Origin: Candidatus Gottesmanbacteria bacterium RIFCSPHIGHO2_02_FULL_40_13
Lineage (GTDB): Bacteria; Patescibacteriota; Microgenomatia; 2-02-FULL-39-11
Direction: 5' to 3'
NCBI GenBank assembly: GCA_001779235.1
Contig: MFJN01000009.1
Span: 1-40,368, forward strand
DNA length: 40,368 nt
A program made the translations under genes and the position numbers. How positions within the stretch are numbered: the first letter of the stretch is position 1; each line of letters opens with the position of its first letter. Of this stretch, positions 1 through 28,956 are shown piece after piece. The notes below the pieces were generated by a model. It was not told the DNA's origin, ran no database searches, and worked only from the letters and a program-made list of their open reading frames with translations.

Positions 1-179
1 ATATCGCAGATGAAGCATTTTTAACCGGAACCGGAGCTCAGGTCGCTTGGATTGCTGAGGTTGACGGCAGGGTGATCAGTTCAAAAATAGGTACGATAAC
101 CGAAAAAATCAAGAAATTATTTTTTGATATCGTACGGGAAAAAGAGAAAAAATACTCCGGTTGGCTGACGAGGATATAG
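1..179 (+). CDS. ilvE: Branched-chain amino acid aminotransferase, C-terminal fragment (5' end outside the window)
   Basis: Frame 3 reads IADEAFLTGTGAQVAWIAEVDGRVISSKIGTITEKIKKLFFDIVREKEKKYSGWLTRI then TAG at 177-179. The EAFxTGTxAxV...VDGR pattern is typical of the class IV aminotransferase (IlvE) C-terminus. It sits beside the leu genes. Confidence 0.7.
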   Translation, partial: IADEAFLTGTGAQVAWIAEVDGRVISSKIGTITEKIKKLFFDIVREKEKKYSGWLTRI

Positions 180-323
180 ATAGATAAAAGTATTATAAGT
201 TTTTTCCCTAAATCTACTAACTACAGTTAATAACAAACTGAAGACTTTATTTGATACCACTCAATTTCCTATAAATCTCCACGATATATTATCTACAATT
301 TATCACTTAATAATTACTATAGG

Positions 324-351
324 TTGTAAAATAATATTATTTTGTTATAAT
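324..351 (+). promoter_or_regulatory. Sigma70-like promoter for the 1083-aa gene: TTGTAA, 16-nt spacer, TATAAT
   Basis: TTGTAA at 324-329 and TATAAT at 346-351. Only 10 nt (ATCCTCCATC, no Shine-Dalgarno) separate the -10 box from the ATG at 362, which suggests a leaderless or near-leaderless transcript. Confidence 0.45.
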
Positions 352-361
352 ATCCTCCATC

Positions 362-3300: not shown

Positions 3301-3613
3301 GAGGGTTATTGCACAAGTTTATGCCGATGAATCGATAGCCGATCATATCGAGCAAAGAAGGGTGATAACAGACGCCGGGGAGTTTGACAGACGACGCCAG
3401 GATGATGAATTATGGTTAATGCCTGAGGAACAAGTAGATAATTTACTCACTCAATTACCATCGATTGCAGATATACCGCCAAGAGATAAACTTTTTGTAT
3501 ATTATGATCCCATAACCGGGTATGGTTATTTATGTTATTTAAAATCCTTATCTCATAAGACTGAGAGGATAATTCAAGTTTTTAATATTAACTCAACAAG
3601 TTTGGAAGGATAA
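362..3613 (+). CDS. Large multidomain protein: N-terminal HD phosphohydrolase domain (YqeK-like), central HEAT/PBS-lyase-like helical repeats, C-terminal NadD-like (cytidylyltransferase-fold) nucleotidyltransferase domain, plus a ~100-aa tail
   Basis: Uninterrupted 1083-aa ORF. HD signature: HSLHV (aa ~45), VIHDWGK (aa ~78-84), AGRHNFG, IIIYADIRA. HEAT-like units: EDDVAFHAAKAYGEMVG, ASDIRIRVEAISGLV, DNDVKLQALIALGRDG, HPDRQFQYEAARVFIGL. NadD-like region: VVVFSGTFDPVHNGS (nt 2708-2752), NPSKNPKA, WLQVGEDRL, and NFSSTEIKNQIQRG, which matches the ISSTxIR motif. Confidence 0.75.
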   Translation: MSRFEVAASIGSLWHNEQPTVILLLRQVISEQLVLSEPVHDLLSHSLHVRNLANAVSIRINERFPHMVDSDLVASSAVIHDWGKLKHQPTINRPYSHYIRTQLDTALAGFPAIGSIAGRHNFGALLRDDPLLLEQMIIIYADIRARSETVEGVVCRRYKTLENSLPEIAEKLRESGKYTKDDILKGNKRLVEFEAILRKNNINIDDLSEIPDGLTPNTRQYYNPSPASSSVPIYKTSKEESDQFLADLHQLDILTLSDEVCAKSNFIRSTIKGIISGDEKASTRLALIDPSRIPQWINLLRIKNQNRILKETTEHPDQNFSLISNPKVLHAARVNHIRVLREVFFLSEEPDFRKRILSAISSLFMGNEIQEDDVAFHAAKAYGEMVGDMKDEDRSSYLEQLWEEYNLDKECSYAPTALEQLAKRREDHAKELYRRMSTDLLHTMGSRAVSLFSQTLLKIGDVDLVKEVASRSRGDDVLTNARESIRYAQLLIPLLHASDIRIRVEAISGLVNLHQRTSNLSLKLYIEGLIDLNRVHSVEHHREVLAALKVCEDPLEKIALCQVIGKISYGEHSELLQSAADTLLKILDEDMDNDVKLQALIALGRDGLTRYLSVEQASKVLDSLWRIFYFNQQARKVMPYFIAGIYASRKDLPHMGKDLSNLMEIVSNENHPDRQFQYEAARVFIGLVGAIDDDNDERIRFAQQGILQTQNISPQLFELVFQKYVTRVSRTSRLTTEQKAKRIAGSMVRKYMSSVQGDMTSRYITYDNLHSSMVLPAGKSTDVVVFSGTFDPVHNGSEVAAEVVSQLVGDVFMQADDGNPSKNPKAREIRNQIITKAIADQPGVYLWNEPHPFVYRKPEEYAELRRVFKDRTVWLQVGEDRLRQSSFYEDFKNYVYLVPHVVTIREANFPSCQLEFRDGIIVGEVDDNLLTYLQTKPDFMAKIARFHRIKVIGVPTNFSSTEIKNQIQRGVLRNVDPSTRRVIAQVYADESIADHIEQRRVITDAGEFDRRRQDDELWLMPEEQVDNLLTQLPSIADIPPRDKLFVYYDPITGYGYLCYLKSLSHKTERIIQVFNINSTSLEG

Positions 3614-3619
3614 AAATTT

Positions 3620-4717
3620 ATGTCCAATTTAATTGAACAAGGATGGCCTAAACCAATACTAGACAAAAATAAATTAGACCGAAAAGCTCGAATTGCAATT
3701 CGTGGCGCATTCGGGCAACTGGGAACCAGACTAATTGGAGCCTTGGGAAAACAACTGGATCTTGAAGCTACGATTGGACTGGTAAGAAGAGATCCTACAG
3801 TGGAACTGAGAGGATTTGCCGCAGTCGAAGGACATCCGGATTTACAATTATTTACCACCGATGAAAGCGAATTGGGAGCATTAAAAGATTTAGGTTTCAA
3901 TGTTGGTTTATGGACAAATGATCACTTTAGGGATGTTGATTTAATGATTGACACCACACCGCCCGGAAAAGGAGCTGATTTTGCCTATCGGTCAAGAGAA
4001 AATAATAAACCAATTATCGTGCAGTCAGGCGAAAGAGGTTTTGGCAGATTAGTTTCACCTCCTCTCATAGCCGGAGGCGAGGGGATAATTTTTGAGGCAG
4101 GAGACTGCAACGTCAATGCAATTAGTGTGGTTGGAAGTGCATTAAGTGGGATTTTAACAAGAGTCGGGGTAAATATATTAATGCAGCACGGAAGATTTTT
4201 TCACGGAAGGCTCAGAGATGAACCGGTAATATCAACATATTTTGTTTCCGGAAAACCTACCCAAGAACATTTACAACACTTGTTTCCTATTTTAGATCTT
4301 ACCGTAGGAAACATAAGCCAAGTTCCTTCTCTAAGGTATTATACTCATAACTTTGTCATGGAAACTGCGGATCTTGTAGATGCGGGTGAAGTGAGAGATC
4401 TTTTAGACAAACATCCAAGAATCAGATGTCTTCCGCATGCAACTTCAACTTACGACGTGCGGGAGTATGATAATATACTCCGTGCAGCCGGAGGCGCGAG
4501 ATTACCGCCAATTGTACCTATAATAGTTCAGGGAGGCACACCTTTTCAAAAATCTAAAACTGTTGAAATGATAGTTACAATTGATTCCAGAAGAATTACA
4601 GTTTTACCAAACATAGATGCAGCGCGAACTCTTTTATGGGGAGTAGAACCTATAGAATCAATGAGAATAACTGATGAAACTATGCACTTTGTTAAACCAC
4701 CCGATGAAATTAAGTAA
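3620..4717 (+). CDS. Rossmann-fold dehydrogenase resembling archaeal type-II glyceraldehyde-3-phosphate dehydrogenase (divergent)
   Basis: Colinear motif matches to archaeal GAPDH: IAIRGAFGQLG (dinucleotide loop), DLMIDTTPPGKGADF, PIIVQSGERG, catalytic-Cys region AGDCNVNAIS (archaeal SCNTT), VPSLRYYTHNFVMET, DKHPRIRCLP, VLPNIDAARTLL. GGAAGGA lies 9 nt upstream of the ATG, which is 7 nt after the upstream stop. Confidence 0.6.
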   Translation: MSNLIEQGWPKPILDKNKLDRKARIAIRGAFGQLGTRLIGALGKQLDLEATIGLVRRDPTVELRGFAAVEGHPDLQLFTTDESELGALKDLGFNVGLWTNDHFRDVDLMIDTTPPGKGADFAYRSRENNKPIIVQSGERGFGRLVSPPLIAGGEGIIFEAGDCNVNAISVVGSALSGILTRVGVNILMQHGRFFHGRLRDEPVISTYFVSGKPTQEHLQHLFPILDLTVGNISQVPSLRYYTHNFVMETADLVDAGEVRDLLDKHPRIRCLPHATSTYDVREYDNILRAAGGARLPPIVPIIVQGGTPFQKSKTVEMIVTIDSRRITVLPNIDAARTLLWGVEPIESMRITDETMHFVKPPDEIK

Positions 4718-4796
4718 TTTTAATTTTTATTCCCGGGCTGATGGTAGAATAAAGAATAATATATTTCGCTTAGAAATGAATTTCTTGTAATATTAA

Positions 4797-5873
4797 CTAC
4801 TTGCAATTCGAAAGAATAACTTCACCCATTTCCTTTGTCCCTAATATATTTTTCTTTTCCGTTAAGATTGTCGCAATATCTCTGGTTCTCCATCCCTCAT
4901 TAAGCGTGTCTGTCACCGCGTTGCAAATACTAACCCATTCTTTTGAGAGATGGAAACTATACTTGAGCATCATTTCCACTGAAAGAATAGCGGCAATGGG
5001 GTTTGCAATATTTTTTCCTGCTGCTTTTGGATATGAACCATGGATCGGTTCGTATAGCGCAACGCCTGAGCCGATCGATGCGGAAGGTAACATTCCTAAT
5101 GATCCTACTAAAACCGAGGCCTCATCGGTCAAAATATCGCCAAACATATTTTCAGTCAGAATGACATCAAATTGAGATGGGTTTTTGATAATCTGCATTG
5201 CAGCATTATCGACAAACAGATGATTTAATTCGATAGATGGATATTTCCGGGATATTTCCGTGACAGTTTCACGCCAGAGCCGTGAGGTTTCCAGAACATT
5301 GGCTTTATCAACAGAGGTAACTTTACCTCTTCTTGTTAAAGCCATCTCAAAGGCAACCTTGGCAACTCTGGTGATTTCATCTTTGGAGTAAATGGAAGTA
5401 TCGACAGCAGTGTTTCCTTTATTATATCTCAGTCTTGGTTTGCCAAAATAAATTCCTCCGGTTAATTCCCTAACGATTATTAAATCAACATTTACTAATC
5501 TTTCTTTCTTCAGCGGAGAAATGTTTATTAAATCCTTGTAAATTTTGACTGGGCGAAGATTTGTAAAAAGTTTTAATGATTGACGCAGTTTAAGCAAGCC
5601 CTGCTCCGGTCTGATTTTTGCTTTTGGGTCTAAATCGTATCTCGAATCGCCAATTGCTCCAAAGAGAATCGCATCGGCACTCTGACAAAGTTTCAAAGTT
5701 TCATCCGGCAGAGGACTTCCGGTTTTATCAATGGCTGTTGCGCCGATAAGTCCATATTTTAATGTAAAAACATGATGGAATTTTTCGGCAATTTTATTAA
5801 GTACATTGACAGCTTGTTCGATTACTTCCGGCCCAATTCCGTCACCTGGAAGAACTGCTATAGATTTTTTCAT
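4797..5873 (-). CDS. leuB: 3-isopropylmalate dehydrogenase
   Basis: IAVLPGDGIGPEV N-terminus, NLRP, IVRELTGGIYFG and NMFGDILTDE motifs. Last gene of the leu cluster. Confidence 0.95.
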   Translation of the reverse strand: MKKSIAVLPGDGIGPEVIEQAVNVLNKIAEKFHHVFTLKYGLIGATAIDKTGSPLPDETLKLCQSADAILFGAIGDSRYDLDPKAKIRPEQGLLKLRQSLKLFTNLRPVKIYKDLINISPLKKERLVNVDLIIVRELTGGIYFGKPRLRYNKGNTAVDTSIYSKDEITRVAKVAFEMALTRRGKVTSVDKANVLETSRLWRETVTEISRKYPSIELNHLFVDNAAMQIIKNPSQFDVILTENMFGDILTDEASVLVGSLGMLPSASIGSGVALYEPIHGSYPKAAGKNIANPIAAILSVEMMLKYSFHLSKEWVSICNAVTDTLNEGWRTRDIATILTEKKNILGTKEMGEVILSNCK

Positions 5874-5880
5874 ATATTTA

Positions 5881-6036
5881 CCCCAGCACCAGAATGCCCC
5901 GGACGTAAGTCCGCGGGATGAATGGTTTTCAAGCGGGCATTCGGTGCGGGGTTTCGCGCTCCGAATGACCGAAAGGACTGATGCCCCGACCGTAAGGTCG
6001 GGGAGCTCTTCACGATTCTGGGTCGTAAAGCAAAAG
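5881..6036. repeat. GC-rich multi-hairpin palindromic repeat element (REP/MITE-like) between leuD and leuB
   Basis: About 155 nt, clearly GC-richer than its surroundings. Hairpins: CATTCGGTGCG/CGCTCCGAATG at 5938-5967, CCCCGACC-GTAA-GGTCGGGG at 5984-6003, CCGGAC-GTAA-GTCCG at 5899-5913. Carries the CCGAATGAC arm seen in the other copies. Confidence 0.6.
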
Positions 6037-6038
6037 TC

Positions 6039-6686
6039 TTAAAACCCAACAGAATTTAGCTCGAGCATATTGTTGTTGGGTTCGGAATTAATAAATATGA
6101 ATAGCTTATGGTGATTTTCAAATTTTTTTATTTTTTCTTTATGAGCAAAAATATAGCTTAACTCATCAATTCCCTTAAGCAAACACATTTTTCTAAATGG
6201 ATCGATAGAAAAGATAAAGCATTTTTTTTGGGCTACATATACCTTTTGTCTGTCTAAATTAATCCTGATCTTTGTATCATGATTCCGTTCAATGATTTTT
6301 AAAAGTATTTCTAACTCATCGGATTTTATAATTACTGGTAATAATCCATTCTTAAGGGCATTATTATAGAAAATATCACCAAAAGAAGAAGAAATTATCA
6401 CTTTAAAACCAAAATCTTGCAAAGCCCACACTGCGTGTTCACGGCTTGATCCGCAACCGAAATTATTTCCGGCAATTAATATTTGAACTAGAGTTTGTTG
6501 AGAATAATTAAAGATACTATTTTTCTTTTTTTTGTCTTTATTATTTCGCCAATTATAAAAAAGATATTTACCCAATCCGTTTTTTTTAGTGGTTTTTAAA
6601 AATTGAGCCGGAATTATCTGATCAGTATCGACATTTTCAGATTTTATCAGTAAACAGGTTGAATTAAGCCGTGTAAATTTATTCAT
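6039..6686 (-). CDS. leuD: 3-isopropylmalate dehydratase small subunit
   Basis: DTDQIIPAQFLK and NFGCGSSREHAVWAL motifs. Start moved to ATG 6686 (MNKFTRL), which has GGAAGGA 8 nt upstream, instead of the track start at 6719. Confidence 0.9.
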   Translation of the reverse strand: MNKFTRLNSTCLLIKSENVDTDQIIPAQFLKTTKKNGLGKYLFYNWRNNKDKKKKNSIFNYSQQTLVQILIAGNNFGCGSSREHAVWALQDFGFKVIISSSFGDIFYNNALKNGLLPVIIKSDELEILLKIIERNHDTKIRINLDRQKVYVAQKKCFIFSIDPFRKMCLLKGIDELSYIFAHKEKIKKFENHHKLFIFINSEPNNNMLELNSVGF

Positions 6687-6741
6687 ATTAGATATCCTTC
6701 CAAAATTCAGCTCCAGCATGATTTTAGAAGGAGTTTAATAA

Positions 6742-8142
6742 TTATAAAAACTTTCTGACATCGGCAATTTTTCCCTCAATTGCACAAGCTGCAGCCGTGA
6801 TGGGACTGGCAAGAAATGTTCGTGCACCGGGTCCCTGTCTGCCTTCATAGTTTCGATTGCTTGTTGAGATGCAGTATTTTCCAGACGGAATTTTGTCTTC
6901 ATTCATGGCAATGCATGCCGAACAACCAGACCAACGCCACTGAAATCCGGCTTCAATAAAAATTTTGTTCAGACCTTCTTTTTCTGCCTGAAATTTCACC
7001 TGTCTTGATCCGGGGACAACTATTGCCACAACATTTCCGGATACCTTTTTTCCTTTCACAATTGCGGCGGCTTGACGCAGATCTGAGATTCTGGCATTAG
7101 TACAGCTGCCGATAAAAATATAATCTACGGAAAACCCTTCCAGAGTCCTGCCGGGTTTCAAATTCATATAAGCTAACGCTTTTTCCCGTGACATTTTTTC
7201 CTCCGGAGTTTGTGCCGTTTCAGGAGAAGGAATTTTTTCCGAAATTTTAATACCGGTCGACGGATCAGTACCCCAAGTAACTAATGGTTCAATATTATTT
7301 CCGTTAATTATTACTGATTTATCAAACTGAGCATTTTCGTCGGTTTTCAAAGTCTGCCAATAATTAATTGCTTCGTTCCACTTATTTCCCTTTGGAGTAA
7401 ATTGTCTGCCTTTCAAATATGCAAAAGTTGTCCGGTCAGGGGCGACCATTCCACATCTGGCTCCCGCTTCAATACTCATATTACAAATTGTCATTCTTTC
7501 TTCCATATTCATTTTTCTTATTAACGATCCGGAATATTCTATGGCAAATCCGGTGCCACCCTTGGTCCCTATTTTTGTTAAGACTGTTAGAATTACGTCT
7601 TTGGTGGTTACCCCTTTTCCTAATTTTCCATCTATATTAATTTCCATAGTTTTCATGGGATTTTGCAGTAAGCATTGGGAAGCAAGTACATGTTCAATTT
7701 CAGTTGTCCCGATACCAAAAGCAAGACAGCCAAATGCACCATGAGTTGAAGTATGGGAGTCACCGCAGACGATGGTCATACCCGGTTGTGTAATACCGAG
7801 TTCCGGTCCGATTACATGAACGATTCCCTGATAGGAACTATCCAAACCGTAAAGTCTAATCCCAAAATCACGGCAATTTTTTACCAGAGTATCGATTTGC
7901 ATACCCGATAATTTATCTCTAATTTCATTTTGATTAATTGTAGAAACATTGTGATCGCAAGCGGCAAAAGTTCTCTCAGGACAGCGAACCTTTAATTTTT
8001 TCTTCCGCAAATTATAAAAAGCCTGAGGCGATGTCACTTCATGAACATAATGGACATCTAAATATAATAAGGAAGGAGAATTTTTTCTCCGGAAGACCAT
8101 ATGGTTACCCCAAATTTTTTCAAAAAGTGTTTTGGCTTTCAT
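6742..8142 (-). CDS. leuC: 3-isopropylmalate dehydratase large subunit
   Basis: Aconitase-family motifs: [45 protein letters not shown]. Confidence 0.95.
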
Positions 8143-9326
8143 AAGGAAGAAATTTTATTTATTAAGGTATGATCATTATTAAATCCAATCAGAACTTTCA
8201 AATCATCATCGTTAACTTCTTTTTTCAGGTCTGCAAAATTTAAAAATTCTTTATAAAAAATGTCCAGTTTGTTTTTTGTCAAATCAACCCCCAAATTATT
8301 TAACCTGTGTTTTAGCGCTGCTCTTCCGCTTCTGGCTGTCAAAACAATTTTAGATGTATCCAGTCCGATGACTTTAGGGTCAATTATTTCGTAATTTTCC
8401 CGTCTTTTGATCACACCGTCCTGATGAATTCCTGAAGAATGAGCGAAGGCGTTCCCTCCGACAATTGCTTTATTCGGCTGCACCGGAATTCCCATGATTT
8501 CTGAGACCATCCGGCTGGTTTTATAAATTTCAAGCGTGTTTACTTGAGTATAAAAGGGCAAAGAATTGGCATAGGTATGGATGGCCATAACAACTTCTTC
8601 CAGAGAAGTGTTGCCGGCTCTTTCACCGATTCCATTAATGGTGACCTCGACCTGTTGAGCTCCGTTCATGATTCCTTGAATGGTATTTGCTGTTGCCAAA
8701 CCAAGATCGTTATGACAATGTACAGAGACACGTGCTTTGTGGATGTTGGGGACATTCTCAAATAAATACTTTATTTTTACGCCCCAGTCTTCCGGTAAAC
8801 AGTAACCGGTGGTATCCGGTATATTTACCACAGTCGCACCTGCTTTTATCGCTTCTGTAATCATTAAGACCAGAAATTGCTTATCGGCTCGTCCTGCATC
8901 TTCGGCATAAAATTCAACATCGTCAACATATTTCTTGGCGTATTTTACTGCGTTTACTGCCCTTTTTAAGATTTTTTCCCGGGTGGAATTAAATTTATAT
9001 TTTATGTGTATGTCCGATGCTCCGATTCCTGTATGAATTCTAGGGTATTTAGCGTGTTTTATAGCCTCATATGCGCAATCAATATCCCGTTTTAGAGCGC
9101 GGGTAAGTCCGCAAACAATACAGTTTTTTACTGTGCTTGCCACTTTTTCGACTGATTTAAAATCTCCCGGTGATGAAATCGGGAAACCGGCTTCTATAAC
9201 ATCCACGCCAAGTTTTTCCAGTTGTTTGGCCAATTCTACTTTCTGATCAGTATTTAGTTTTGCTCCGGGTGATTGTTCACCATCCCGCAAAGTGGTATCA
9301 AAGATGTGTATTCTTTTTTTAGACAT
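8139..9326 (-). CDS. leuA: 2-isopropylmalate synthase, short form without the C-terminal LeuA-dimer/regulatory domain
   Basis: [26 protein letters not shown] and GIGERAGN (HMGL-like TIM barrel). Ends at 395 aa just after the linker. Its stop overlaps the leuC start by 4 nt. AAGGAGGA SD 9 nt upstream of the ATG. Confidence 0.9.
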
Positions 9327-9344
9327 ATTGACTTGATCCTCCTT

Positions 9345-9455
9345 CGCTCAAATTCATCTCGTGGTTTACATCCACGCAGACGAAATTTCGCTTCGGCGGA
9401 TTATGCATCTCTACGCCTTTCCTTCGTCGCTTTGCTCCTCAGGATCGGTTAGAGC
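9345..9455. repeat. GC-rich repeat-family copy between the leu attenuator terminator and the leuA ribosome-binding site
   Basis: Locally GC-rich. CCTTCGCTC / CCTTCGTCGCT direct repeats, CGAAATTTCG palindrome, CGC-TTCG-GCG hairpin. The terminal GCTCCTCAGGATC resembles the CCTGAG arm of the other copies. Confidence 0.45.
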
Positions 9456-9460
9456 TGCAT

Positions 9461-9490
9461 AAAAAAATCTCTCTTGGTTCAAGAGAGATT
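9461..9490 (-). terminator. Intrinsic terminator (attenuator) in the leu operon leader
   Basis: Minus strand reads AATCTCTCTT-GAACC-AAGAGAGATT followed by TTTTTAT: a perfect 10-bp stem, 5-nt loop and U-run. It lies downstream of the leader ORF and upstream of leuA, with no minus-strand gene upstream for it to terminate. Confidence 0.7.
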
Positions 9491-9520
9491 ATTGGTTAAT
9501 TTGTTAATTGGATTATTGGT

Positions 9521-9610
9521 CTATTGGGCTGTTCTTGATACTCTCTCAAACCACGCTAACTCCTCCCCAAGGAGGAGAAGGGCGAGATTTAAAAAAGAGT
9601 ACCTTCTCAT
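9521..9610 (-). CDS. Leucine-rich leader peptide of the leu operon (29 aa: MRRYSFLNLALLLLGEELAWFERVSRTAQ)
   Basis: ATG at 9610 and TAG at 9521-9523. Contains 7 Leu codons, including four consecutive (CTT CTC CTC CTT). These form the 5' arm of a CTCCTCC-TTGG-GGAGGAG hairpin (9560-9577). Followed about 30 nt later by the terminator. Confidence 0.65.
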   Translation of the reverse strand: MRRYSFLNLALLLLGEELAWFERVSRTAQ

Positions 9611-9620
9611 AGTTATGATG

Positions 9621-9649
9621 ATTTTATCTTTTATTGAATTTTTTGTCAA
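9621..9649 (-). promoter_or_regulatory. Sigma70-like promoter for the leu leader and operon: TTGACA, 17-nt spacer, TAAAAT
   Basis: On the minus strand, TTGACA is the reverse complement of 9644-9649 and TAAAAT of 9621-9626. The leader ATG lies 10 nt after the -10 box. Confidence 0.55.
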
Positions 9650-9663
9650 TCTTGTGTTACAAT
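9634..9663 (+). promoter_or_regulatory. Possible divergent promoter for the methyltransferase/cutA genes: TTGAAT, 18-nt spacer, TACAAT
   Basis: Hexamers at 9634-9639 and 9658-9663, overlapping the minus-strand leu promoter back to back. Confidence 0.35.
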
Positions 9664-9681
9664 GTCTTGTAGCCGCTTTCT

Positions 9682-10308
9682 ATGCGACTCTCCAAAATAA
9701 AATTATTCGATTATTTTTATAAAGCATACCACGCGTGGCCTCTTATTTATTCAAATCTTATTCAGCTTTTATCTTTTGGCCAATGGGAGCAGTGGCAGCA
9801 ACGGGTTTTTGATGATATTTCAGGACATAAAATACTGGAAATAGGAGTAGGACCCGGCAAATTATTATTAAAACTGGTTCAAAAAGGGTATGACATTACA
9901 GGTATAGAGCTTCGTCGAGGCATGGCCTTTGAGGCTAGGCGAAGATTAAAAAGAGCCGGTTATCTCTCACAAATCTTACAGCAGAATATAGAAAAACTCC
10001 CTTTTGACAATGAAATATTTGACTGTATAGTTCTGACTTTCGTACTGGCAGAAATAACTCATCTTGAAAAAGCAATTTTGGAGATGAAAAGAGTGCTGAA
10101 AACAAACGGCAAAGTTATCATTATTGCAGGGGGTATTCCGCAGGACAATAATCTGATCGCAAGAATTCTCTTTCGGTTAGTTTCCCCGCATACTACTTTA
10201 CATCTCCAAAGAAATAACATGCAGTATTTTCACTCAGCCGGTTTTGAGGTAAAAAGAACAGATTTTGGTCCCTTCAACATCGTCAATAAAATCGTAGCTG
10301 TCAAATGA
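9682..10308 (+). CDS. Class I SAM-dependent methyltransferase
   Basis: Motif I ILEIGVGPGK. Acidic post-I and motif II/III pattern (DCIVLTFVL, LKTNGKVII). Confidence 0.8.
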   Translation: MRLSKIKLFDYFYKAYHAWPLIYSNLIQLLSFGQWEQWQQRVFDDISGHKILEIGVGPGKLLLKLVQKGYDITGIELRRGMAFEARRRLKRAGYLSQILQQNIEKLPFDNEIFDCIVLTFVLAEITHLEKAILEMKRVLKTNGKVIIIAGGIPQDNNLIARILFRLVSPHTTLHLQRNNMQYFHSAGFEVKRTDFGPFNIVNKIVAVK

Positions 10309-10616
10309 AGTGCATTTATGTTCCCTGCAAAGATCTAAGTGAAGCGGAGAAGATTTCTCTCGATTTACTCGAAAAGAAACTGGTTATCTGCGTCAACATC
10401 TTTCCTCAGGTTCGCAGTCTCTATCTTTGGAAGAAAAAAATCGAAAAATCCGATGAAACGTTATTTATCGCTAAAACAAAAAATAATCTGGTTAATAAAG
10501 CTGTTAACAGGATTAAACAAACTCATTCATACGAAACTCCGGAAATATTGATCTTATCGGCAGAAATCAGATCCAAAAGAATTACAGATTGGGTTAATGA
10601 GGAACTGGGGGAGTAA
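10305..10616 (+). CDS. cutA: Divalent-cation tolerance protein CutA
   Basis: About 100 aa. CVNIFPQVRSLYLWKKKIE...ETLFIAKT...HSYETPEILIL...WV matches the CutA1 pattern. 4-nt overlap with the upstream gene. Confidence 0.85.
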   Translation: MKCIYVPCKDLSEAEKISLDLLEKKLVICVNIFPQVRSLYLWKKKIEKSDETLFIAKTKNNLVNKAVNRIKQTHSYETPEILILSAEIRSKRITDWVNEELGE

Positions 10617-10621
10617 TCCCC

Positions 10622-10655
10622 AAGAAAAACCCCGCCAGAGGCGGGGTTTCTTCGT
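10622..10655. terminator. Bidirectional intrinsic terminator between cutA (+) and the DUF5679 gene (-)
   Basis: AAAAA-CCCCGCC-AGA-GGCGGGG-TTTCTT. GC stem at 10630-10646, flanked by an A-run and a T-run, so it can work on both strands. Confidence 0.7.
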
Positions 10656-10676
10656 TAAAAAATTCTTAAACGAACA

Positions 10677-10817
10677 TTATCCTCCGATTTTATACATTCC
10701 GGTACCGCAAGTCGGACACTTTCCTTTCAAGGCCGGTTTACCGTTTTTCATTGTTACTTTCACTGCATTTGGGTCGTCTCTCTTGGCGCGACATTTTACA
10801 CAATACATTTCTGCCAT
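10677..10817 (-). CDS. Small zinc-ribbon protein, DUF5679-like (46 aa, below the ORF-track cutoff)
   Basis: Minus strand GGGAGGTGACAATAAAA-ATG. Encodes MAEMYCVKCRAKRDDPNAVKVTMKNGKPALKGKCPTCGTGMYKIGG with CxxC...CxxC. Strong SD. Followed by the terminator at 10622-10655. Confidence 0.8.
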   Translation of the reverse strand: MAEMYCVKCRAKRDDPNAVKVTMKNGKPALKGKCPTCGTGMYKIGG

Positions 10818-10907
10818 TTTTATTGTCACCTCCCTTCAATAAAATTATTTTTTAGGCAGCGTTCATTACTAACTTGAACAGTGTGACGCTGCACAAAGGA
10901 GCACAAT

Positions 10908-10933
10908 CTAAATAATATGGACATATTATTTAG
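10908..10933. repeat. Perfect 26-nt AT-rich palindrome just downstream of the 94-aa gene
   Basis: CTAAATAATATG-GA-CATATTATTTAG, with 12-nt arms that are exact reverse complements. Confidence 0.5.
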
Positions 10934-10943
10934 AAGTGTCTCT

Positions 10944-11228
10944 TTAGCTTCCTTTAAGAACAAAATATATCACACCCTGCAGGCTGATTGCAAGGAAAGT
11001 AAATAAACTTATTCTTTTTAGATCTTTTTTAACATAACTATATTCGCTGTTGTCTGATACTGATTTGACTGACGGAACGCTCTGTTGATTAAATGTATAT
11101 TTCAATAATCCGTTAGTTTTTGAATCAATCTGAGGTAGATGATTTTGATGCTTGACAGGTTGAAAACCTAGAAGTTTTTGCCGGTGTTTTTCCGCCAGTA
11201 ATTTTTGCCTTTTAGTTTTTTTTGGCAT
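10944..11228 (-). CDS. Hypothetical small protein: basic N-terminus, one C-terminal TM helix
   Basis: 94-aa ORF. MPKKTKRQKLLAEKHRQKL, then a hydrophobic ISLFTFLAISLQGVIYFVL tail. No recognisable family. Confidence 0.5.
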   Translation of the reverse strand: MPKKTKRQKLLAEKHRQKLLGFQPVKHQNHLPQIDSKTNGLLKYTFNQQSVPSVKSVSDNSEYSYVKKDLKRISLFTFLAISLQGVIYFVLKGS

Positions 11229-11258
11229 AGGTATTCAAGCGTGAGTGAGCTTAACATA

Positions 11259-11287
11259 TTGACAGTTTCTTGTAAAGTGAGTACAAT
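11259..11287 (+). promoter_or_regulatory. Near-consensus sigma70 promoter: TTGACA, 17-nt spacer, TACAAT
   Basis: TTGACA at 11259-11264 and TACAAT at 11282-11287, about 50 nt upstream of the DUF4446 gene. Confidence 0.6.
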
Positions 11288-11337
11288 CTCGAATACATAG
11301 TTTACTCATTTCAACTAATAACTATTGATATATAATA

Positions 11338-11817
11338 ATGAATAATTTTTATATCATACTTGATATTATTTTATTCATATGGACGATCGGATTGACGGTA
11401 TATCTGATAAAGTTAAACTCTCATTATCAGGGATTGATGAAAGGTCATAGTAATGGTAATTTGACTCAGGTTCTAAATCAGATAACAAAAGAAGTAACGT
11501 TGGATCGTAAAAATATTGAACAGTTAAAGGAAAGTGTTGCAGGATTTTCTGAAGACGTCATAAGTCATATTCAAAACGTAGGGATTCTCAGGTTTAATCC
11601 CTTTGCAGATACAGGAGGAGATCAGAGTTTTATTTTGGCTATACTTGATGGGAATGACAGCGGAATAGTTCTTACATCACTTCATAGTCGGGGCACAACC
11701 CGGTGGTATGCTAAAAACGTCAGATCAGGAAAAGGAGTGGACCATGAATTATCAGAGGATGAGTTGAAGGCAATCAGAAAAACAGTTGGAATTAAATATA
11801 AAAAAACTGATAACTAA
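11338..11817 (+). CDS. DUF4446-family membrane-anchored protein
   Basis: N-terminal TM helix. LRFNPFADTGGDQSFILAILDGNDSGIVLTSLHSRGTTRWYAK...LSEDELKAI matches the recalled DUF4446 core. Confidence 0.7.
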   Translation: MNNFYIILDIILFIWTIGLTVYLIKLNSHYQGLMKGHSNGNLTQVLNQITKEVTLDRKNIEQLKESVAGFSEDVISHIQNVGILRFNPFADTGGDQSFILAILDGNDSGIVLTSLHSRGTTRWYAKNVRSGKGVDHELSEDELKAIRKTVGIKYKKTDN

Positions 11818-11834
11818 AACATTAAAATTTATTT

Positions 11835-13010
11835 ATGAAAAATAAGCTTATTCCAATTCTTGCCGGACTAGGGTTATATTTTCTATCTACGGGAATGTCA
11901 TATGCAGTTTTTAATAATCTATCCTTGAAACCATCAAATAATGAAATAACCTCTCCTCTGGGAAAAATTTCTCCGGCTGAAAAAGTAAAAAACAAAGTTG
12001 ATCCATCTATACCTCGGGATGAAGTCTGTCCTTTGAATGGTGTCATGTATACCAGGAAAGAAAAAGATATCTGGGAAACGCGCAGGCCTTTAGCAGTCAT
12101 GATAGAAAACAGTGAGGAGGCAAGACCTCAATCAGGTTTATCCAGAGCAGATATTGTCTATGAAGCACTGGCCGAGGGTTGGATTACAAGACTAATGGGA
12201 GTTTTCTATTGCAATACTCCACTCGAAAATATAACGTTTGCTCCGGTCAGATCGGCCCGAACATATTATGTCGATTGGGTATCAGAATATGATGCTTTAT
12301 ATAATCATGTAGGAGGAGCAGGAAGATGTGCGGATGATACTGTTGATGACCGTGCGAAAGCGCTGTGTCAGATTTACAGATACGGCATAAAAGATTTAGA
12401 CCAGTTTGGTATTGGTTTTCCGGATTGTTACAGAAATCCTGACAGGTTAGATCATCCGGTAGCAACAGAACATACCATGGTTTGTTTTTCGGACAATCTT
12501 TTTAAAATAGCAGACAAAAGAGGCTGGGCTAATCCGGATGAAAACGGGATATCCTGGGACAAAAATTTCAAGCAGTGGTCGTTTAAAGATGATGCCGATA
12601 AAATAGAACAGGGGAATACTCAAAATATAAAAATTGTTTTTGCGGAAGGGTATGACAGATATGACGTGGAATGGGATTACGATCAGGTATCAAATACCTA
12701 TAAACGTAAAAATGGAGGCGTAGCGCAAATAGATCTGGAAACACAGGAACAACTCGCAGTCAAAAATGTGGTAGTACAACTTACTAAACTCACCGGTCCC
12801 GTTGATGAGCATGGTCACTTTTTATATGCCACCATAGGTTCAGGGAAGGCTATTATCTTTCAGGACGGCAAGACGATGGTTGGGACCTGGAGTAAAAAAA
12901 GCAGAATTGGCCGGACAGCCTATTTCGATTCTCTGGGTAAAGAAATAAAATTCACCAGAGGTTTAATTTGGATAGAATTAATACCAAGGGAACAGCAGCT
13001 GACGTATTAA
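11835..13010 (+). CDS. DUF3048-family (YerB-like) secreted or lipoprotein
   Basis: Signal or anchor segment. RPLAVMIENSEEARPQSGLSRADIVYEALAEGWITRLMGVFY is the DUF3048 N-domain signature. Confidence 0.8.
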   Translation: MKNKLIPILAGLGLYFLSTGMSYAVFNNLSLKPSNNEITSPLGKISPAEKVKNKVDPSIPRDEVCPLNGVMYTRKEKDIWETRRPLAVMIENSEEARPQSGLSRADIVYEALAEGWITRLMGVFYCNTPLENITFAPVRSARTYYVDWVSEYDALYNHVGGAGRCADDTVDDRAKALCQIYRYGIKDLDQFGIGFPDCYRNPDRLDHPVATEHTMVCFSDNLFKIADKRGWANPDENGISWDKNFKQWSFKDDADKIEQGNTQNIKIVFAEGYDRYDVEWDYDQVSNTYKRKNGGVAQIDLETQEQLAVKNVVVQLTKLTGPVDEHGHFLYATIGSGKAIIFQDGKTMVGTWSKKSRIGRTAYFDSLGKEIKFTRGLIWIELIPREQQLTY

Positions 13011-13118
13011 AAAATTTTATGATTTAACCTGCCCCAATCCATAAAGACGGATATGGGGACAAATATAATAAAGATATTACCTTGTCCCGGATTGCAATAA
13101 TTAAGAGGAGGGATAAAT

Positions 13119-13694
13119 ATGTTGCATGATTTAATTATTTCCCGCGTCCGGGTAAAAATATTACAGCTTTTTTTTCTGAATTCTGCCAAAATTCACCACG
13201 TTAGGGCTATTGTTCGGCTTGTGGGAGAAGAAATTAACGCTGTCCGCCGTGAGCTGGCTCATTTAGAAAAATCAGGTCTTTTATCCAAGGAAAGAAGGGC
13301 CAACAGACTCTATTACGGTCTTCGTAAAGATTACCCTTTGTATTATGATCTGATGGATTTAATTGTAAAAACTTCAGCGCTCGGAGGGGATATATTAAAA
13401 AATAAGGTAAAGCTTGGAAAAGTTAAGTATGTGATGATATCCGGAAAATATGCCAGAAATAAAAATAGAGCTGTTAATGATGTGGATTTATTAATGGTAG
13501 GTAAAGTCGTCATACCAGAATTAAGTCAACTAATCCGGGCTGAGGAAGTAAGACGCGAAAGGGAAATAAATTATACAGTCATGAGCGAGGAAGAGTTTGA
13601 GTTTCGGAAAAAAAGAAGAGATCCCTTCGTAATGGATATTCTTAAAGGATCAAGGATTATGATTATTGGGGACGAAGAAGAATTAATCGGTTAA
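13119..13694 (+). CDS. Winged-helix (ArsR-like) DNA-binding protein with a C-terminal nucleotidyltransferase-like remnant
   Basis: RVKILQLFFLN...VRAIVRLVGEEINAVRRELAHLEKSGLL...RLYYGL (wHTH). C-terminal half has VNDVDLLMVGK. Strong SD (GAGGAGGG). Confidence 0.65.
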   Translation: MLHDLIISRVRVKILQLFFLNSAKIHHVRAIVRLVGEEINAVRRELAHLEKSGLLSKERRANRLYYGLRKDYPLYYDLMDLIVKTSALGGDILKNKVKLGKVKYVMISGKYARNKNRAVNDVDLLMVGKVVIPELSQLIRAEEVRREREINYTVMSEEEFEFRKKRRDPFVMDILKGSRIMIIGDEEELIG

Positions 13695-13892
13695 ATGTCA
13701 CTTATCATGAAAAAGATAATCCGGGCAGGTAAACACAGTCTGGCGGTGATAATACCCGCTGATTTTGCTCATTCTTTAGGAGTAAAATCCGGAGACAGCG
13801 TCAAGGTGACGACATCCCTGGATAAAGGATTCATGTCTGTCTTTTTCTCCGGGGCAGTACAATTAAAACTCCCGTCCTCTTCTAATAAATAA
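13695..13892 (+). CDS. AbrB/SpoVT (MazE-like) swapped-hairpin DNA-binding protein
   Basis: KHSLAVIIPADFAHSLGVKSGDSVKV is a typical SpoVT-AbrB core. Starts on the nucleotide immediately after the upstream stop. Confidence 0.7.
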   Translation: MSLIMKKIIRAGKHSLAVIIPADFAHSLGVKSGDSVKVTTSLDKGFMSVFFSGAVQLKLPSSSNK

Positions 13893-13900
13893 AAAAACAT

Positions 13901-15232
13901 ATGTTTGGCAAAAGAAAAATATTTTGGTTTATTATTGCCCTAACGATCATGGTAGCAATAGTAGATTTACCAAAAGATTACCCATTGAAATTTCGTCTTG
14001 GCCAAATTAATTTCGACAGAACCATCAGTTCTCCCAAAATTAACATAAATATCGGCAATTTTGCTGTAAATAAAGATATAGACGTTCAATTTGGTCTTGA
14101 TCTTGCCGGAGGGACTCATCTGGTTCTGGAGGCAGATATGAGCAAAGTAGAGAAGGCAGACCGTGTTAAAGCTTATGATTCTGCTAAAAATATAGTCGAA
14201 CGAAGAATTAATTTATACGGGTTAAGTGAGCCGGTAATTCAACAGTCAAAAGTGGGCGATTCATACAGAATACTGGTAGAAATTCCGGGAGTGTCAAATA
14301 TTGATCAGGCGATTGAGTTGATAGGCAAAACAGCCCAATTATCTTTTTTTGAAGAAGCAACAAAGTCGGCCAATGAGGCGACTCCTTCCTCGCTTGCGGA
14401 AATCTGGCCGATTCTCACCTCTTTGACCGGAAAAAATTTGAAAAAGGCTGAGGTGACTTTTGAACCCAATACAGGAGAGCCGCAAGTATCTTTGGAATTT
14501 GACAGCGACGGAGCTAAAATGTTTGAAGATATTACAACCCGCAATGTAGGTAAGACCGTAGCAATATTTTTAGATAACCAACTCTTATCAGCTCCAAAAG
14601 TTAATGAATCTATCACAGGAGGAAAAGCGTCGATCACGGGTAAATTTTCCCTTGATGAAGCAAAAAGATTAGCCATATCCCTGAACGCGGGCGCTTTACC
14701 TGTTCCATTAAAGGTAATAGAACAGCGTAATGTCGGCGCAACTCTCGGTCAGCAGTCGATAGAGAGGAGTGTTTTGGCTGGTATGGTAGGTTTTCTGATT
14801 ATTGCGGTTTTTATGATCGTTAATTACGGTTTATTAGGCGTCATTGCCGATACAGCCCTGATTATTTATGCTTTGATCGTTTTTGCTATTTTTAAGCTTG
14901 TTCCTGTAACTTTGACTCTAGCCGGTATTGCCGGATTTATACTGTCGATTGGTATGGCAGTTGACGCAAATATTCTTATTTTTGAAAGGATGAAGGAAGA
15001 AATAAGATGGGGTAAAGATTATCTGGTGGCCTTGAAACTTGGTTTTGACAGGGCTTTTCCCTCAATTCGTGATTCCAATATTTCATCACTCATCACTTGT
15101 GGAATTTTATACTGGTTCGGTACGGGCATAGTGAGGGGTTTTGCTTTGACCCTGGCAATAGGAATTGTGGTATCTCTGTTTAGTGCAATAACTATTACCC
15201 GTAATTTACTCAATCTGATTTATAAGGAATAA
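13901..15232 (+). CDS. secD: Protein translocase subunit SecD
   Basis: LGLDLAGGTHLVLEAD, SEPVIQQ and GALPVPLKVIEQRNVGATLG, with C-terminal 6-TM RND-like motifs. Confidence 0.9.
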   Translation: MFGKRKIFWFIIALTIMVAIVDLPKDYPLKFRLGQINFDRTISSPKININIGNFAVNKDIDVQFGLDLAGGTHLVLEADMSKVEKADRVKAYDSAKNIVERRINLYGLSEPVIQQSKVGDSYRILVEIPGVSNIDQAIELIGKTAQLSFFEEATKSANEATPSSLAEIWPILTSLTGKNLKKAEVTFEPNTGEPQVSLEFDSDGAKMFEDITTRNVGKTVAIFLDNQLLSAPKVNESITGGKASITGKFSLDEAKRLAISLNAGALPVPLKVIEQRNVGATLGQQSIERSVLAGMVGFLIIAVFMIVNYGLLGVIADTALIIYALIVFAIFKLVPVTLTLAGIAGFILSIGMAVDANILIFERMKEEIRWGKDYLVALKLGFDRAFPSIRDSNISSLITCGILYWFGTGIVRGFALTLAIGIVVSLFSAITITRNLLNLIYKE

Positions 15233-15233
15233 T

Positions 15234-16142
15234 ATGATCGATATTATCGGAAAAAAATGGTGGTTTCTGATTTTTTCAGCAGTTATCATCATACCAGGAT
15301 TGATTTCGTTAATACTCTGGGGAATAAGGCCTGCGATAGATTTTACGGGAGGAACCCTTCTTGAGTTTCAATTTCTAAATAAAGAAACCAAAATTGAGAA
15401 CAGTGATTTGCGAAGGGAACTGGAAAAAGAAGAATTAGAGATTGGGAGTATTCAACAATCCGGAGAAAATACTTTTTTAGTCAGGCTGAAATCTTTGGAA
15501 AAAGATAAAAGCCTGAAATTATTTTCAGGTTTCTCTGCAACCTATGGCGAAATAAAACAAATCCGCAGCGAGACGGTAGGTCCACTTATTGGCCAAGAAA
15601 CCGCTCAAAATTCCCTGAAAGCTATTGTTGTTGCCTCAATCGCCATTATTATTTATGTAGCTTTAGCATTCAGGCATATTCCAAAACCTTACTCATCATG
15701 GAGGTTTGGAATTTGTGCTGTGTTCGCTTTAATACATGATATTTTAGTGGTAGTAGGAATATTTTCCATTCTTGGACATTTTTATAAGGTCGAGATAGAT
15801 AGTTTATTTATCACTGCCCTTTTGACGGTCATGGGATTTTCGGTGCATGATTCAATCGTTGTTTTTGACAGAATTAGGGAGAATCTGATACATCTAACCG
15901 GCAAAGAATTTTCCCAGATCGTCAATGAATCAATTGTACAAACTCTTGCCCGATCTTTGTCTACCTCGATGACGGTAATTTTGACTCTGGTAGCTTTATT
16001 ACTCTTTGGCGGTGAATCTACAAGGTGGTTTATAGCTGCACTTCTGATTGGTATTATCTCCGGTACCTATTCTTCGATATTTAACGCCGCACCACTTCTC
16101 GTTATTTGGGAAGAACGGTCGAGGAAGAAAAGAAAGCTTTAA
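15234..16142 (+). CDS. secF: Protein translocase subunit SecF
   Basis: IDFTGGT, HDILVVVGIFS, VMGFSVHDSIVVFDRIREN. Starts 1 nt after secD. Confidence 0.9.
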   Translation: MIDIIGKKWWFLIFSAVIIIPGLISLILWGIRPAIDFTGGTLLEFQFLNKETKIENSDLRRELEKEELEIGSIQQSGENTFLVRLKSLEKDKSLKLFSGFSATYGEIKQIRSETVGPLIGQETAQNSLKAIVVASIAIIIYVALAFRHIPKPYSSWRFGICAVFALIHDILVVVGIFSILGHFYKVEIDSLFITALLTVMGFSVHDSIVVFDRIRENLIHLTGKEFSQIVNESIVQTLARSLSTSMTVILTLVALLLFGGESTRWFIAALLIGIISGTYSSIFNAAPLLVIWEERSRKKRKL

Positions 16143-17460: not shown

Positions 17461-17508
17461 GATAGTATTAATTTTCTGACTAATATTATAACCTAAAGAT
17501 ATAAGATC

Positions 17509-20701: not shown

Positions 20702-20726
20702 TTAAAAATATTTCAAGGAGGCAGTT

Positions 20727-21926: not shown

Positions 21927-21927
21927 T

Positions 21928-25325: not shown

Positions 25326-25425
25326 ATTTTTTAAATAGCTGGCAAACGATTCCTTAATTTAGTATAAAATAAAGCATATGATAGAATCAATCTATGTTTA
25401 CATTGAAAGATAGAAAGGAGCGAAT

Positions 25426-26880: not shown

Positions 26881-26942
26881 CACCTATTCAAGCGATAGGG
26901 CGAAGTCACTAATTATCTTATCAAAGAATATTGTAGGTCTTC

Positions 26943-26999
26943 GCCACAAAGGGCCGTATTCATAAATAACGTAAACGTTATTTATGAACGAGCCCATAG
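26943..26999 (+). repeat. Intercistronic hairpin element, family 2, copy 1 (gltX-rdgB spacer)
   Basis: GCCACAAAGGGCCGTATTC + perfect 14-bp-arm palindrome (26959-26988, TTCATAAATAACGT-AA-ACGTTATTTATGAA) + GAACGAGCCCATAG. The flanks match the copy at 40037-40088 on the opposite strand. Confidence 0.5.
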
Positions 27000-27015
27000 C
27001 ATATATTTGTGCTGT

Positions 27016-28953: not shown

Positions 28954-28956
28954 AAT

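Follow-up and report, generated by a model that had tools for sequence, protein, structure and literature searches.

Among described regulatory systems, the closest counterpart of the element reported here is the enterobacterial leu leader, leuL (Rfam RF00512), in which leuA is preceded by a promoter, a short open reading frame (ORF) with a run of four Leu codons, alternative pairings of RNA segments (1:2, 2:3, and 3:4) that exclude one another, and an intrinsic terminator. The Leu run of the Escherichia coli leader uses CUA codons. Ribosome-mediated attenuation of this kind requires tight coupling of transcription and translation as well as a finely tuned leader. Leader-peptide attenuators have been described or predicted in Actinobacteria also (PMC1262725; PMC4046766). 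The leuA leader peptide of Corynebacterium glutamicum (cg4015) contains four Leu codons (PMC4046766, PMC3890552), and the actinobacterial LEU element of Seliverstov et al. (2005) is a pseudoknot of Leu codons with the leuA Shine-Dalgarno sequence, often with no obvious terminator (PMC1262725). Attenuator peptides rich in Leu, Ile, and Val, with terminator read-through, are found at the ilv-leu operons of Staphylococcus aureus (PMC5794164) and Listeria monocytogenes (PMC5864092), and flavobacteria have been suggested to use leader-peptide attenuation (PMC9723704). The initial annotation of the DNA studied here had taken the mechanism to be a proteobacterial one and T-boxes to be its counterpart in Firmicutes, a view that these reports show to be too narrow. 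For Patescibacteria, or the candidate phyla radiation (CPR), we found no report of leader-peptide attenuation in the full-text literature searched, which is weak evidence as subscription journals were not covered. Here, we analyze a leader upstream of leuA in contig MFJN01000009.1 of Candidatus Gottesmanbacteria bacterium RIFCSPHIGHO2_02_FULL_40_13, a stretch of 40,368 nucleotides (nt) referred to as a whole as the window. The initial annotation had proposed a Leu-codon leader-peptide attenuator of leuA; the position of the leader, its pairing energies, the statistics of its antiterminator, and its conservation in about 20 relatives support that proposal. We consider it very probable that the leader is a ribosome-mediated transcription attenuator of leuA-leuC-leuD-leuB that senses the charging of tRNA-Leu.

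The window leader is like leuL in each of the elements named above and in the use of a rare Leu codon within the run (here CUC, which makes up 7% of the Leu codons in the long ORFs of the window). The likeness to the enterobacterial leu leader that had been pointed out at first holds at the level of function and does not extend to homology: there is no similarity in sequence or structure, and the Leu_leader family RF00512 is not among the Rfam matches at E ≤ 10 for positions 9250..9750. The window leader also differs from leuL in its codons, which are CUU or CUC (CUY) and not CUA, in an ORF that lacks a Shine-Dalgarno sequence and begins some 3-5 nt downstream of the predicted 5' end of the transcript, in an unstructured linker of 31-55 nt between segments 2 and 3, and in an antiterminator that also covers the terminator loop. 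As in the actinobacterial leuA leaders, a mini-ORF with a Leu run stands directly upstream of leuA in a nonproteobacterial phylum (PMC4046766, PMC1262725); unlike the LEU element, the window leader has a textbook terminator and antiterminator. It would share with T-box riboswitches the association with amino acid genes and a choice between terminator and antiterminator set by tRNA charging, but at 150 nt including the ORF it is far too short for a T-box, the T-box model RF00230 gave no match at any threshold used, and neither a specifier loop nor a T-box motif was found.

No Rfam family matched anywhere in the window at its gathering score. Such a lack of curated matches is to be expected, because leaders of this class arise and diverge quickly. 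At E ≤ 10, the leader-type matches were Phe_leader (17.3 bits versus 55, spanning 9460..9509 and so covering the terminator) and serC (13.2 versus 35). A match to a PyrR-type attenuator (20.4 bits versus a gathering score of 54, E = 2) was rejected as reflecting the generic shape of a hairpin plus terminator only, and a 19-bit match to whalefall-1 was rejected as noise on a simple CUCCUCC/GGAGGAG hairpin.

The leader occupies the divergent gap between leuA (9326..8139, minus strand) and a methyltransferase gene (9682..10308, plus strand); its elements are listed in Table 1. The TTGACA-17-TAAAAT promoter reported at first is indeed present at 9649..9621 on the minus strand and agrees with 11 of 12 consensus positions, a quality reached by only four sites on both strands of the 40-kb window. 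The 29-amino-acid ORF with seven Leu codons, four of them consecutive, is likewise as had been described, the Leu residues falling at codons 7 (TTA), 9 (CTC), 11-14 (CTT CTC CTC CTT, at 9580..9569), and 18 (TTA). Neither in the window nor in related leaders does a Shine-Dalgarno sequence precede the leader ATG, and in related leaders the -10 box lies 6-13 nt from the ATG (spacings measured by eye). The predicted 5' untranslated region of the leader is about 3-5 nt, and the sensing ORF would thus be leaderless or nearly so. A start of this sort fits the genome, because a Shine-Dalgarno-like motif precedes only 10 of the 29 window genes, and in several a -10 box stands directly before the ATG. 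Such TATAAT-like boxes, a few nucleotides before the ATG, were seen for example at the genes starting at 362, 11338, 30854, and 17509, and the overall pattern suggests that leaderless mRNAs are frequent in this genome. CUY accounts for 58 of the 64 Leu codons in or beside the leader runs and for 30% of Leu codons in the window's long ORFs, a bias that points to the sensing of a single tRNA-Leu species.

The 161-nt leader folds with an energy of -48.2 kcal/mol (z = -5.3 versus dinucleotide shuffles). Its 5' part is a long hairpin (9603..9537), the anti-antiterminator, with CUCCUCC/GGAGGAG at the tip and an outer stem in which codons 4-9 pair with GGUUUGAGAGAGUAU. The Leu-codon hairpin seen at first, CTCCTCC with GGAGGAG, is therefore present, but as the tip of a larger structure. 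The candidate antiterminator, originally drawn as GAGAGAG with CTCTCTT, also exists, although it is 13 continuous bp long and not 7, joining UGGUUUGAGAGAG (9553..9541) to CUCUCUUGAACCA (9487..9475). Similarly, the terminator described as a perfect 10-bp stem plus U-run has a stem of 11 bp and a loop of 3 nt; the first two T's of the seven-T run (9467..9461) close the stem. The hairpin energy is -13.1 kcal/mol, and this terminator at 9490 outranks every other terminator-like site in the window.

Across ten Gottesman-type leaders, the minimum-free-energy fold has segment 2 paired with codons 3-10, and the pairing energies are -19 to -38 kcal/mol for 1:2, -15 to -21 for 2:3, and -9 to -13 for 3:4. 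This is the order of stability that the classical model requires, the one exception being L004, with -19.0 for 1:2 versus -19.6 for 2:3. The comparison of the 1:2/3:4 structures with 2:3, which the initial annotation had put forward as a check, thus yields alternatives ordered as an attenuator needs. In an explicit two-state comparison for the window leader, the terminated state without a ribosome (-46.9 kcal/mol) was better by 9 kcal/mol than the antiterminated state (-37.9), and a 30-nt ribosome footprint on any of Leu codons 7-14 brought the gap down to 1.3-4 kcal/mol. A further model, in which truncated transcripts were masked by a ribosome, was set aside as nondiscriminating, since the terminator 5' arm paired upstream even without a ribosome.

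The complementarity behind the antiterminator exceeds what base composition would provide. Compared with 300 dinucleotide shuffles of the upstream region, it scored z = -1.9 to -6.4 in 18 leaders (mean, -3.9; window, -4.3), and in 17 of the 18 at most 3 of the 300 shuffles reached the observed energy, L030 being marginal (13 of 300). In an alignment of 10 leaders, the antiterminator columns were 94.4% paired, versus 27-60% when the partner was slid by 1-3 columns; the terminator columns were 87.6% paired, and GGTTTGAGAG in segment 2 was invariant.

The closest LeuA proteins come from Patescibacteria, and those with names belong to Candidatus Gottesmanbacteria and Roizmanbacteria, which bears out an early guess that the genome is CPR-like. 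Several related metagenome bins are labeled "uncultured Gammaproteobacteria," a label that we take to be wrong because these bins share the same synteny. Samples SRR22387800, SRR25508634, and ERZ27254745 are among those in which close relatives occur. About 20 related Patescibacteria loci (named members being Gottesman-, Roizman-, and Dojkabacteria) have the leader layout in front of leuA, and every CPR locus in which leuA comes first carries it. The initial annotation had proposed aligning related leuA upstream regions and had counted relatives devoid of a Leu-rich mini-ORF and terminator as evidence against an attenuator; the opposite was found, with conserved Leu runs and a layout kept throughout these relatives. 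For a systematic search, we defined a signature consisting of an ATG-initiated ORF of 8-45 amino acids containing LLL, with a terminator at most 120 nt downstream. It was detected automatically upstream of leuA in 19 of 20 CPR loci, all comparison loci having been chosen through LeuA, and by eye in the twentieth (L178); it had no matches away from leuA leaders in 337 kb on both strands.

The leader peptides of the relatives (Table 1) are 14-25 amino acids long and always start with ATG. Beyond the Leu run their sequence is not conserved, but the pyrimidine run is read in the Leu frame in every clade, and this frame is kept across at least seven leader types unrelated in sequence. Among leaders, Leu codons are spread over codons 4-14, that is, over the whole of segment 1, and a 21-nt insertion in the leader ORF of L166 is in frame. 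Most relatives have their stop codon either inside segment 2 or 2-7 nt ahead of it, and the linkers between segments 2 and 3 are A rich and 31-55 nt long (counted by eye); in the window and, independently, in L174, the ORF runs through segment 2. The nearest relatives (L172, with 91% LeuA identity, and L001) encode a peptide of 17 amino acids that ends at a TAA stop in the place of the window's codon 18, TTA, so that the 29-amino-acid peptide of the window is a local variant that arose by a TAA-to-TTA change. The invariant ATG, the maintained Leu frame, the in-frame insertion, and a stop codon that tracks segment 2 are all indirect signs that the leader ORF may well be translated.

The regulatory codons also appear to vary with the operon. 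In L009 and L028, ORFs of ~565 amino acids and ~130-160 amino acids stand ahead of leuA and are taken to be ilvB and ilvN from size and order only, and the leaders before the first operon gene read MHILSSYIIVLLINR and MKHNGSILVLLITR, with mixed Ile, Val, and Leu codons. Since Leu-only leaders stand before leuA-first operons and Ile/Val/Leu leaders before putative ilv operons, the regulatory codons follow the apparent operon products. These mixed leaders resemble the ilv-leu peptides of S. aureus and Listeria, with no sequence similarity to them; unlike the window leader, those of S. aureus and Listeria are followed by a long ilv-leu operon and work in concert with CodY.

Between clades, both strands of the antiterminator are replaced together. 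In the clade of the window, GGUUUGAGAG pairs with CUCUC..ACC; the corresponding pairs are GGGCGGG with CCCGCC in L008 and L024, AGGUGGGG with CCCCGCCU in L007, CGGGAGG with CCUCCCG in L171, and UUUCAGGCGG.GAGAA with UUCUC.CCGCCUGAAA in L018. In L001, L162, L173, L177, and L002, the leuA ATG follows the U-run by only 0-5 nt and the terminator 3' arm has GAGAG at the Shine-Dalgarno position, so that in these loci the terminator may also mask the initiation of translation.

Outside the CPR, the closest LeuA proteins are those of Bacteroidota, at 64-68% identity. A metagenome scan with the CPR LeuA alignment returned, among the matches listed, LeuA proteins of 53-68% identity in Bacteroidota-like loci and no CPR-type Leu leader. 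Seven Bacteroidota loci (L019, L023, L051, L066, L085, L087, and L127) do have a leader of the Ile/Leu/Val type (e.g., MNRQVIILGIILLGLLQTPA) and a terminator, located ~150-280 nt upstream of leuA, and ..VIILGIILLGLLQTPA is an example of the short ORF in L019, L023, L051, and L087. Their peptides have Ile, Leu, Val, and Gly intermixed where the CPR peptides have a run of Leu only, their stems bear no relation to the CPR ones, and a promoter of the window type is not evident. Because of these differences in peptide, stems, and promoter, the CPR leader did not simply travel with leuA, and the Bacteroidota leaders are a separate family of branched-chain attenuators.

The window leader thus has those features of its class that can be read from sequence: a position between promoter and operon, a Leu-rich ORF, a terminator, a mutually exclusive antiterminator, and an anti-antiterminator that overlaps the codons, with a stop codon placed accordingly. 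From the elements, energies, conservation, and covariation observed, we infer a sequence of events that comprises transcription start, translation of the ORF, ribosome stalling, and kinetic competition between helices. Transcription would begin a few nucleotides 5' of the leader ATG, so that the mini-ORF would be read from a near-leaderless message. With ample Leu, the ribosome would pass codons 7-14 and, in the genome of the window, translate across segment 2; in most relatives it would stop 2-7 nt before or inside that segment. Segment 2 would then be covered by the ribosome or re-paired with segment 1, the terminator would form, and a transcript of ~150 nt would be released. When Leu-tRNA is scarce, mainly the species that reads CUY, the ribosome would stall in codons 7-14 and occupy segment 1, a stall at any of codons 4-14 being expected to remove the anti-antiterminator. 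The strand UGGUUUGAGAGAG would thereby be free to pair with CUCUCUUGAACCA once the latter is made, hiding the 5' arm, the loop, and the first 3'-arm bases of the terminator and allowing polymerase to enter leuA. With no translation at all, 1:2 and 3:4 would form, resulting in termination.

Several points weigh against this interpretation. The terminator state is still slightly more stable at equilibrium despite a stalled ribosome, and because of this the attenuator model needs kinetic trapping; the antiterminator would win kinetically because its 3' strand is made before the terminator 3' arm and because it fills the terminator loop. Stalls at codons 12-14 could in principle leave ~9-11 bp of the outer 1:2 stem standing around the ribosome. 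In the closest clade, segment 2 is near-invariant and the changes in the antiterminator are one-sided (G-U to A-U or G-C), as follows from the invariance of GGUUUGAGAG, with no compensatory double changes; the full swaps of antiterminator strands come from clades that are not alignable column by column. The CUY bias could be partly structural, as the GGAGGAG strand needs CUCCUCC as its partner. The terminator is also separated from leuA by another 134 nt of structured RNA. Finally, the start site, the terminated product, and the translation of the leader ORF are all predicted from sequence.

It is conceivable that the switch between terminator and antiterminator is real but is worked by a protein, an uncharged tRNA in the manner of a T-box, or a ligand acting on the 5' hairpin, with the Leu frame as a by-product of a pyrimidine-rich strand. 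We regard this as improbable. The leader ATG has no Shine-Dalgarno sequence, as such a switch would allow, but many genes of this genome lack one anyway. The requirement of CUCCUCC for pairing with GGAGGAG could explain the Leu codons in structural terms, and the invariance of GGUUUGAGAG within the clade is what a binding site might show. Against this reading stand an invariant ATG, a Leu frame shared by at least seven unrelated leader types, a 21-nt insertion in L166 that is in frame, a stop codon positioned relative to segment 2, and Ile/Val/Leu codons in leaders before ilv-containing operons. The weak, subthreshold PyrR-like layout noted above is the nearest approach to a known family of this kind, and no T-box or other Rfam family emerges at gathering score, nor at E ≤ 10 beyond noise.

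Even less probable, in our view, is that the unit from promoter to terminator is a separate small gene whose product is a small RNA or a small hydrophobic peptide and whose transcription always ends at 9461, with leuA transcribed from its own promoter in 9460..9327. The 134 nt available in the window, and a CATAAT directly after TG (GAGATGCATAATCC) that is a possible weak -10 box, would accommodate such a promoter, but no promoter-like site in 9460..9327 on the minus strand passed the scan, and in the five loci where only 0-5 nt separate the U-run from the leuA ATG there is no room for one. A conserved antiterminator would moreover be purposeless if termination were constitutive, and the putative product is a peptide that is not conserved beyond its Leu run. 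A further explanation would be that AT-rich intergenic DNA has brought a promoter-like site, a Leu-rich ORF, and a palindrome together by chance. LLLL alone is common (a six-frame translation of the window contains it 17 times), and the total counts of promoter-like hexamer pairs and terminator-like sites are about those of shuffled sequence. However, one of only four 11/12 promoters is here joined to the single best terminator in 40 kb, and in the 337 kb scanned the full combination stands at leuA in 19-20 of 20 related loci and at no other site, comparative data by which this explanation is effectively refuted. Rho-dependent termination at the G-poor, C/A-rich linker was considered and set aside, since the leader has a conserved intrinsic terminator of the canonical type.

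The ribosome-mediated attenuator that we favor is a lineage-specific addition to a well-known class. The mechanism is the textbook one of the enterobacterial leu, trp, and his leaders; the principle is not new, and what is gained is a wider taxonomic range and the details of a variant. New are the taxonomic setting, the near-leaderless sensing ORF, and the second RNA element described below. If the interpretation is right, uncultured bacteria with reduced genomes like those of Gottesman-, Roizman-, and Dojkabacteria would regulate their own leucine synthesis by tRNA charging and would not simply scavenge leucine. The leader would also be a natural case of a sensing ORF without a Shine-Dalgarno sequence, and the signature of near-leaderless ATG, CUY run, antiterminator, and terminator could be used to annotate amino acid regulons in CPR metagenome bins.

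All four proteins of the presumed target operon, LeuA, LeuC, LeuD, and LeuB, match NCBIfam equivalog or subfamily models above the cutoffs; LeuA scores 618.8 bits against NF002086 (cutoff, 532) over profile positions 3-383 of 516. A domain search found no C-terminal LeuA_dimer regulatory domain in the window LeuA. This domain binds leucine for feedback inhibition. If its absence means that there is no feedback inhibition, the RNA switch may be the main leucine control. Related LeuA proteins come in short (380-395 amino acids) and long (~499 amino acids) forms, and the leader is present with both.

Between the terminator and leuA, the window carries a second structured element made up of two hairpins (Table 1). 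The closing stem of hairpin B pairs the leuA Shine-Dalgarno sequence GGAGGA (9342..9337). Directly after the U-run, ATGCAGCTCTAA (9460..9449, minus strand) is a 3-codon ORF, and relatives L162 and L173 have ATGCAGCAAAAA; ATGCAGCTCTAA is a relic of the old leuA start, the present start and Shine-Dalgarno sequence having come in with the inserted element. Second elements, which are GC richer and 110-165 nt long, are found in L172, L165, L166, L169, and L174 and are absent from L001, L162, L173, and L177. They occupy the position seen in the window and likewise consist of two hairpins, the second of which hides the ribosome-binding region. L172 has hairpin A as in the window, and its hairpin B differs in sequence and closes with AUCCGCC/GGCGGAU. 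The motif CUGCGUGGAYGUARACCACGAG is common to the second elements of L166 and the window, and ACGGRUGAYGCGA...GCGGCAGGACCCGUAAAUUA to those of L165, L169, and L174. The element had no Rfam match in the window or in L165, L166, and L169, apart from a spurious mir-320 match in those loci only, and no other copy was found in the window, the fetched loci, or plasmids, so that it is not a repeat within reach. MAFFT and RNAalifold gave no consensus structure for six second-element hairpins, the sequences being too divergent to align. A broader picture can be offered only tentatively: CPR bacteria might have a widespread family of their own of near-leaderless attenuators that depend on initiation at the 5' end and read essentially a single CUY tRNA-Leu, and in some of these lineages, that of the window included, a second RNA that hides the leuA ribosome-binding site might back up the attenuator as an independent translational checkpoint or ligand sensor.

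Table 1. Features of the leuA leader region and operon in the window, and leader peptides and second elements in related loci
Feature	Position	Strand	Basis or detail
-35 hexamer TTGACA of leader promoter	9649..9644	minus	Sequence; TTGACA/TTGCAA-type hexamer equally placed in related leaders
-10 hexamer TAAAAT	9626..9621	minus	17-nt spacer from -35; ends 10 nt 5' of leader ATG
Leader ORF, 29 codons plus TAG, peptide MRRYSFLNLALLLLGEELAWFERVSRTAQ	9610..9521	minus	ATG 9610..9608, stop 9523..9521
Regulatory Leu codons 7, 9, 11-14	9592..9569	minus	Sequence; TTA, CTC, CTT CTC CTC CTT
Segment 1, 5' strand of anti-antiterminator hairpin, codons 3-14	9603..9571	minus	Minimum-free-energy folds, helix conservation
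Segment 2, 3' strand of anti-antiterminator hairpin	9566..9537	minus	Folds; includes antiterminator strand UGGUUUGAGAGAG (9553..9541)
Linker, G poor, A/C rich, unstructured	9536..9491	minus	Unpaired in folds; leader stop codon inside, in the window's genome
Segment 3 as antiterminator partner, CUCUCUUGAACCA	9487..9475	minus	Terminator 5' arm, loop, and first 2 nt of 3' arm
Intrinsic terminator AAUCUCUCUUG-AAC-CAAGAGAGAUU plus U-run	9490..9461	minus	11-bp stem, 3-nt loop (9490..9466)
Second structured element, 134 nt	9460..9327	minus	Two stable hairpins, z = -5.8
Hairpin A	9460..9403	minus	Fold
Hairpin B	9401..9336	minus	Closing stem AUCC.CC/GG.GGAU
leuA, 2-isopropylmalate synthase, short form, 395 amino acids	9326..8139	minus	HMGL-like and HCS_D2 only
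leuC	8142..6742	minus	NCBIfam model above cutoff
leuD	6719..6039	minus	NCBIfam model above cutoff
leuB	5873..4797	minus	NCBIfam model above cutoff
Second element, L172	~1040-1181		
Second element, L166	2372-2500		
Second element, L165	2363-2500		
Second element, L169	2360-2500		
Second element, L174	1340-1500		
Leader peptide, L001 and L172			MRSNSLLNLALLLLGEV
Leader peptide, L162			MRNNSLLNLALLLLGEG
Leader peptide, L173 and L177			MRSNSLLNLALLLLGEG
Leader peptide, L002			MKNLFLLNLFLLLPGEF
Leader peptide, L003			MRNLTLSSLDLLLQRRFLMV
Leader peptide, L004			MRNLTLSSLNLLLGEDF
Leader peptide, L005			MKNLLLSNAALLLEDV
Leader peptide, L165			MNRLTLSNLDLLLLGEDL
Leader peptide, L166			MQKQVLLNPCLPAGRLGLLLLGEAL
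Leader peptide, L169			MGKLTLSNLDLLLLGEVI
Leader peptide, L174			MQNFTLLNLDLLLLGEVLWFERVIN
Leader peptide, L178			MKKLLLLNLIGLLLEEI
Leader peptide, L007			MIKNLSLNLLLNLTNLNRWGR
Leader peptide, L008			MKMLSISNSLLLLTPTWAGA
Leader peptide, L024			MKNLTLNFDLLLNPTWAGA
Leader peptide, L018			MVLQIDNQSLALLLSAGFRR
Leader peptide, L171 (Dojkabacteria)			MKKTTSNNTGLLLNPKT

Small GC-rich palindromic hairpins are inserted at varied points of the leader in different lineages, namely, at ~2255-2275 in L166 (the in-frame 21 nt), in the terminator loop of L178, in the gap between promoter and ATG of L024, and in the interior of the second element of L174, and the related genomes seem prone to such insertions. 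In L178, a 74-amino-acid gene with no Pfam match is called between the attenuator terminator and leuA (259-483), and in L005 a stretch of ~430 nt that begins with ATG (~540-965) occupies the same interval and was read by eye as a possible ORF.

Terminator-like hairpins with U-runs in positions 1..40000 of the window numbered 23 versus 16 and 16 versus 15 (observed versus shuffled). The terminator of the leuA leader is the only strong hairpin of this type in the window, and canonical intrinsic terminators seem to be rare at gene ends there.

Elsewhere in the window, a 29-nt near-perfect palindrome, TGTTATCATGTTCTAGAACATGATAACAT, is present in two copies (32027..32055 and 32506..32534) that flank an ORF on the minus strand (32057..32500), a 147-amino-acid gene of the Trp-repressor family (PF01371). 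The palindromes may be operator sites or may delimit a small cassette. The window also encodes an archaeal-type phosphoenolpyruvate carboxylase (19046..20701, plus strand; PF14010 PEPcase_2, E = 6e-131), the gene for which adjoins an aminotransferase and a class II tRNA synthetase of the Asp/Asn/Lys type.

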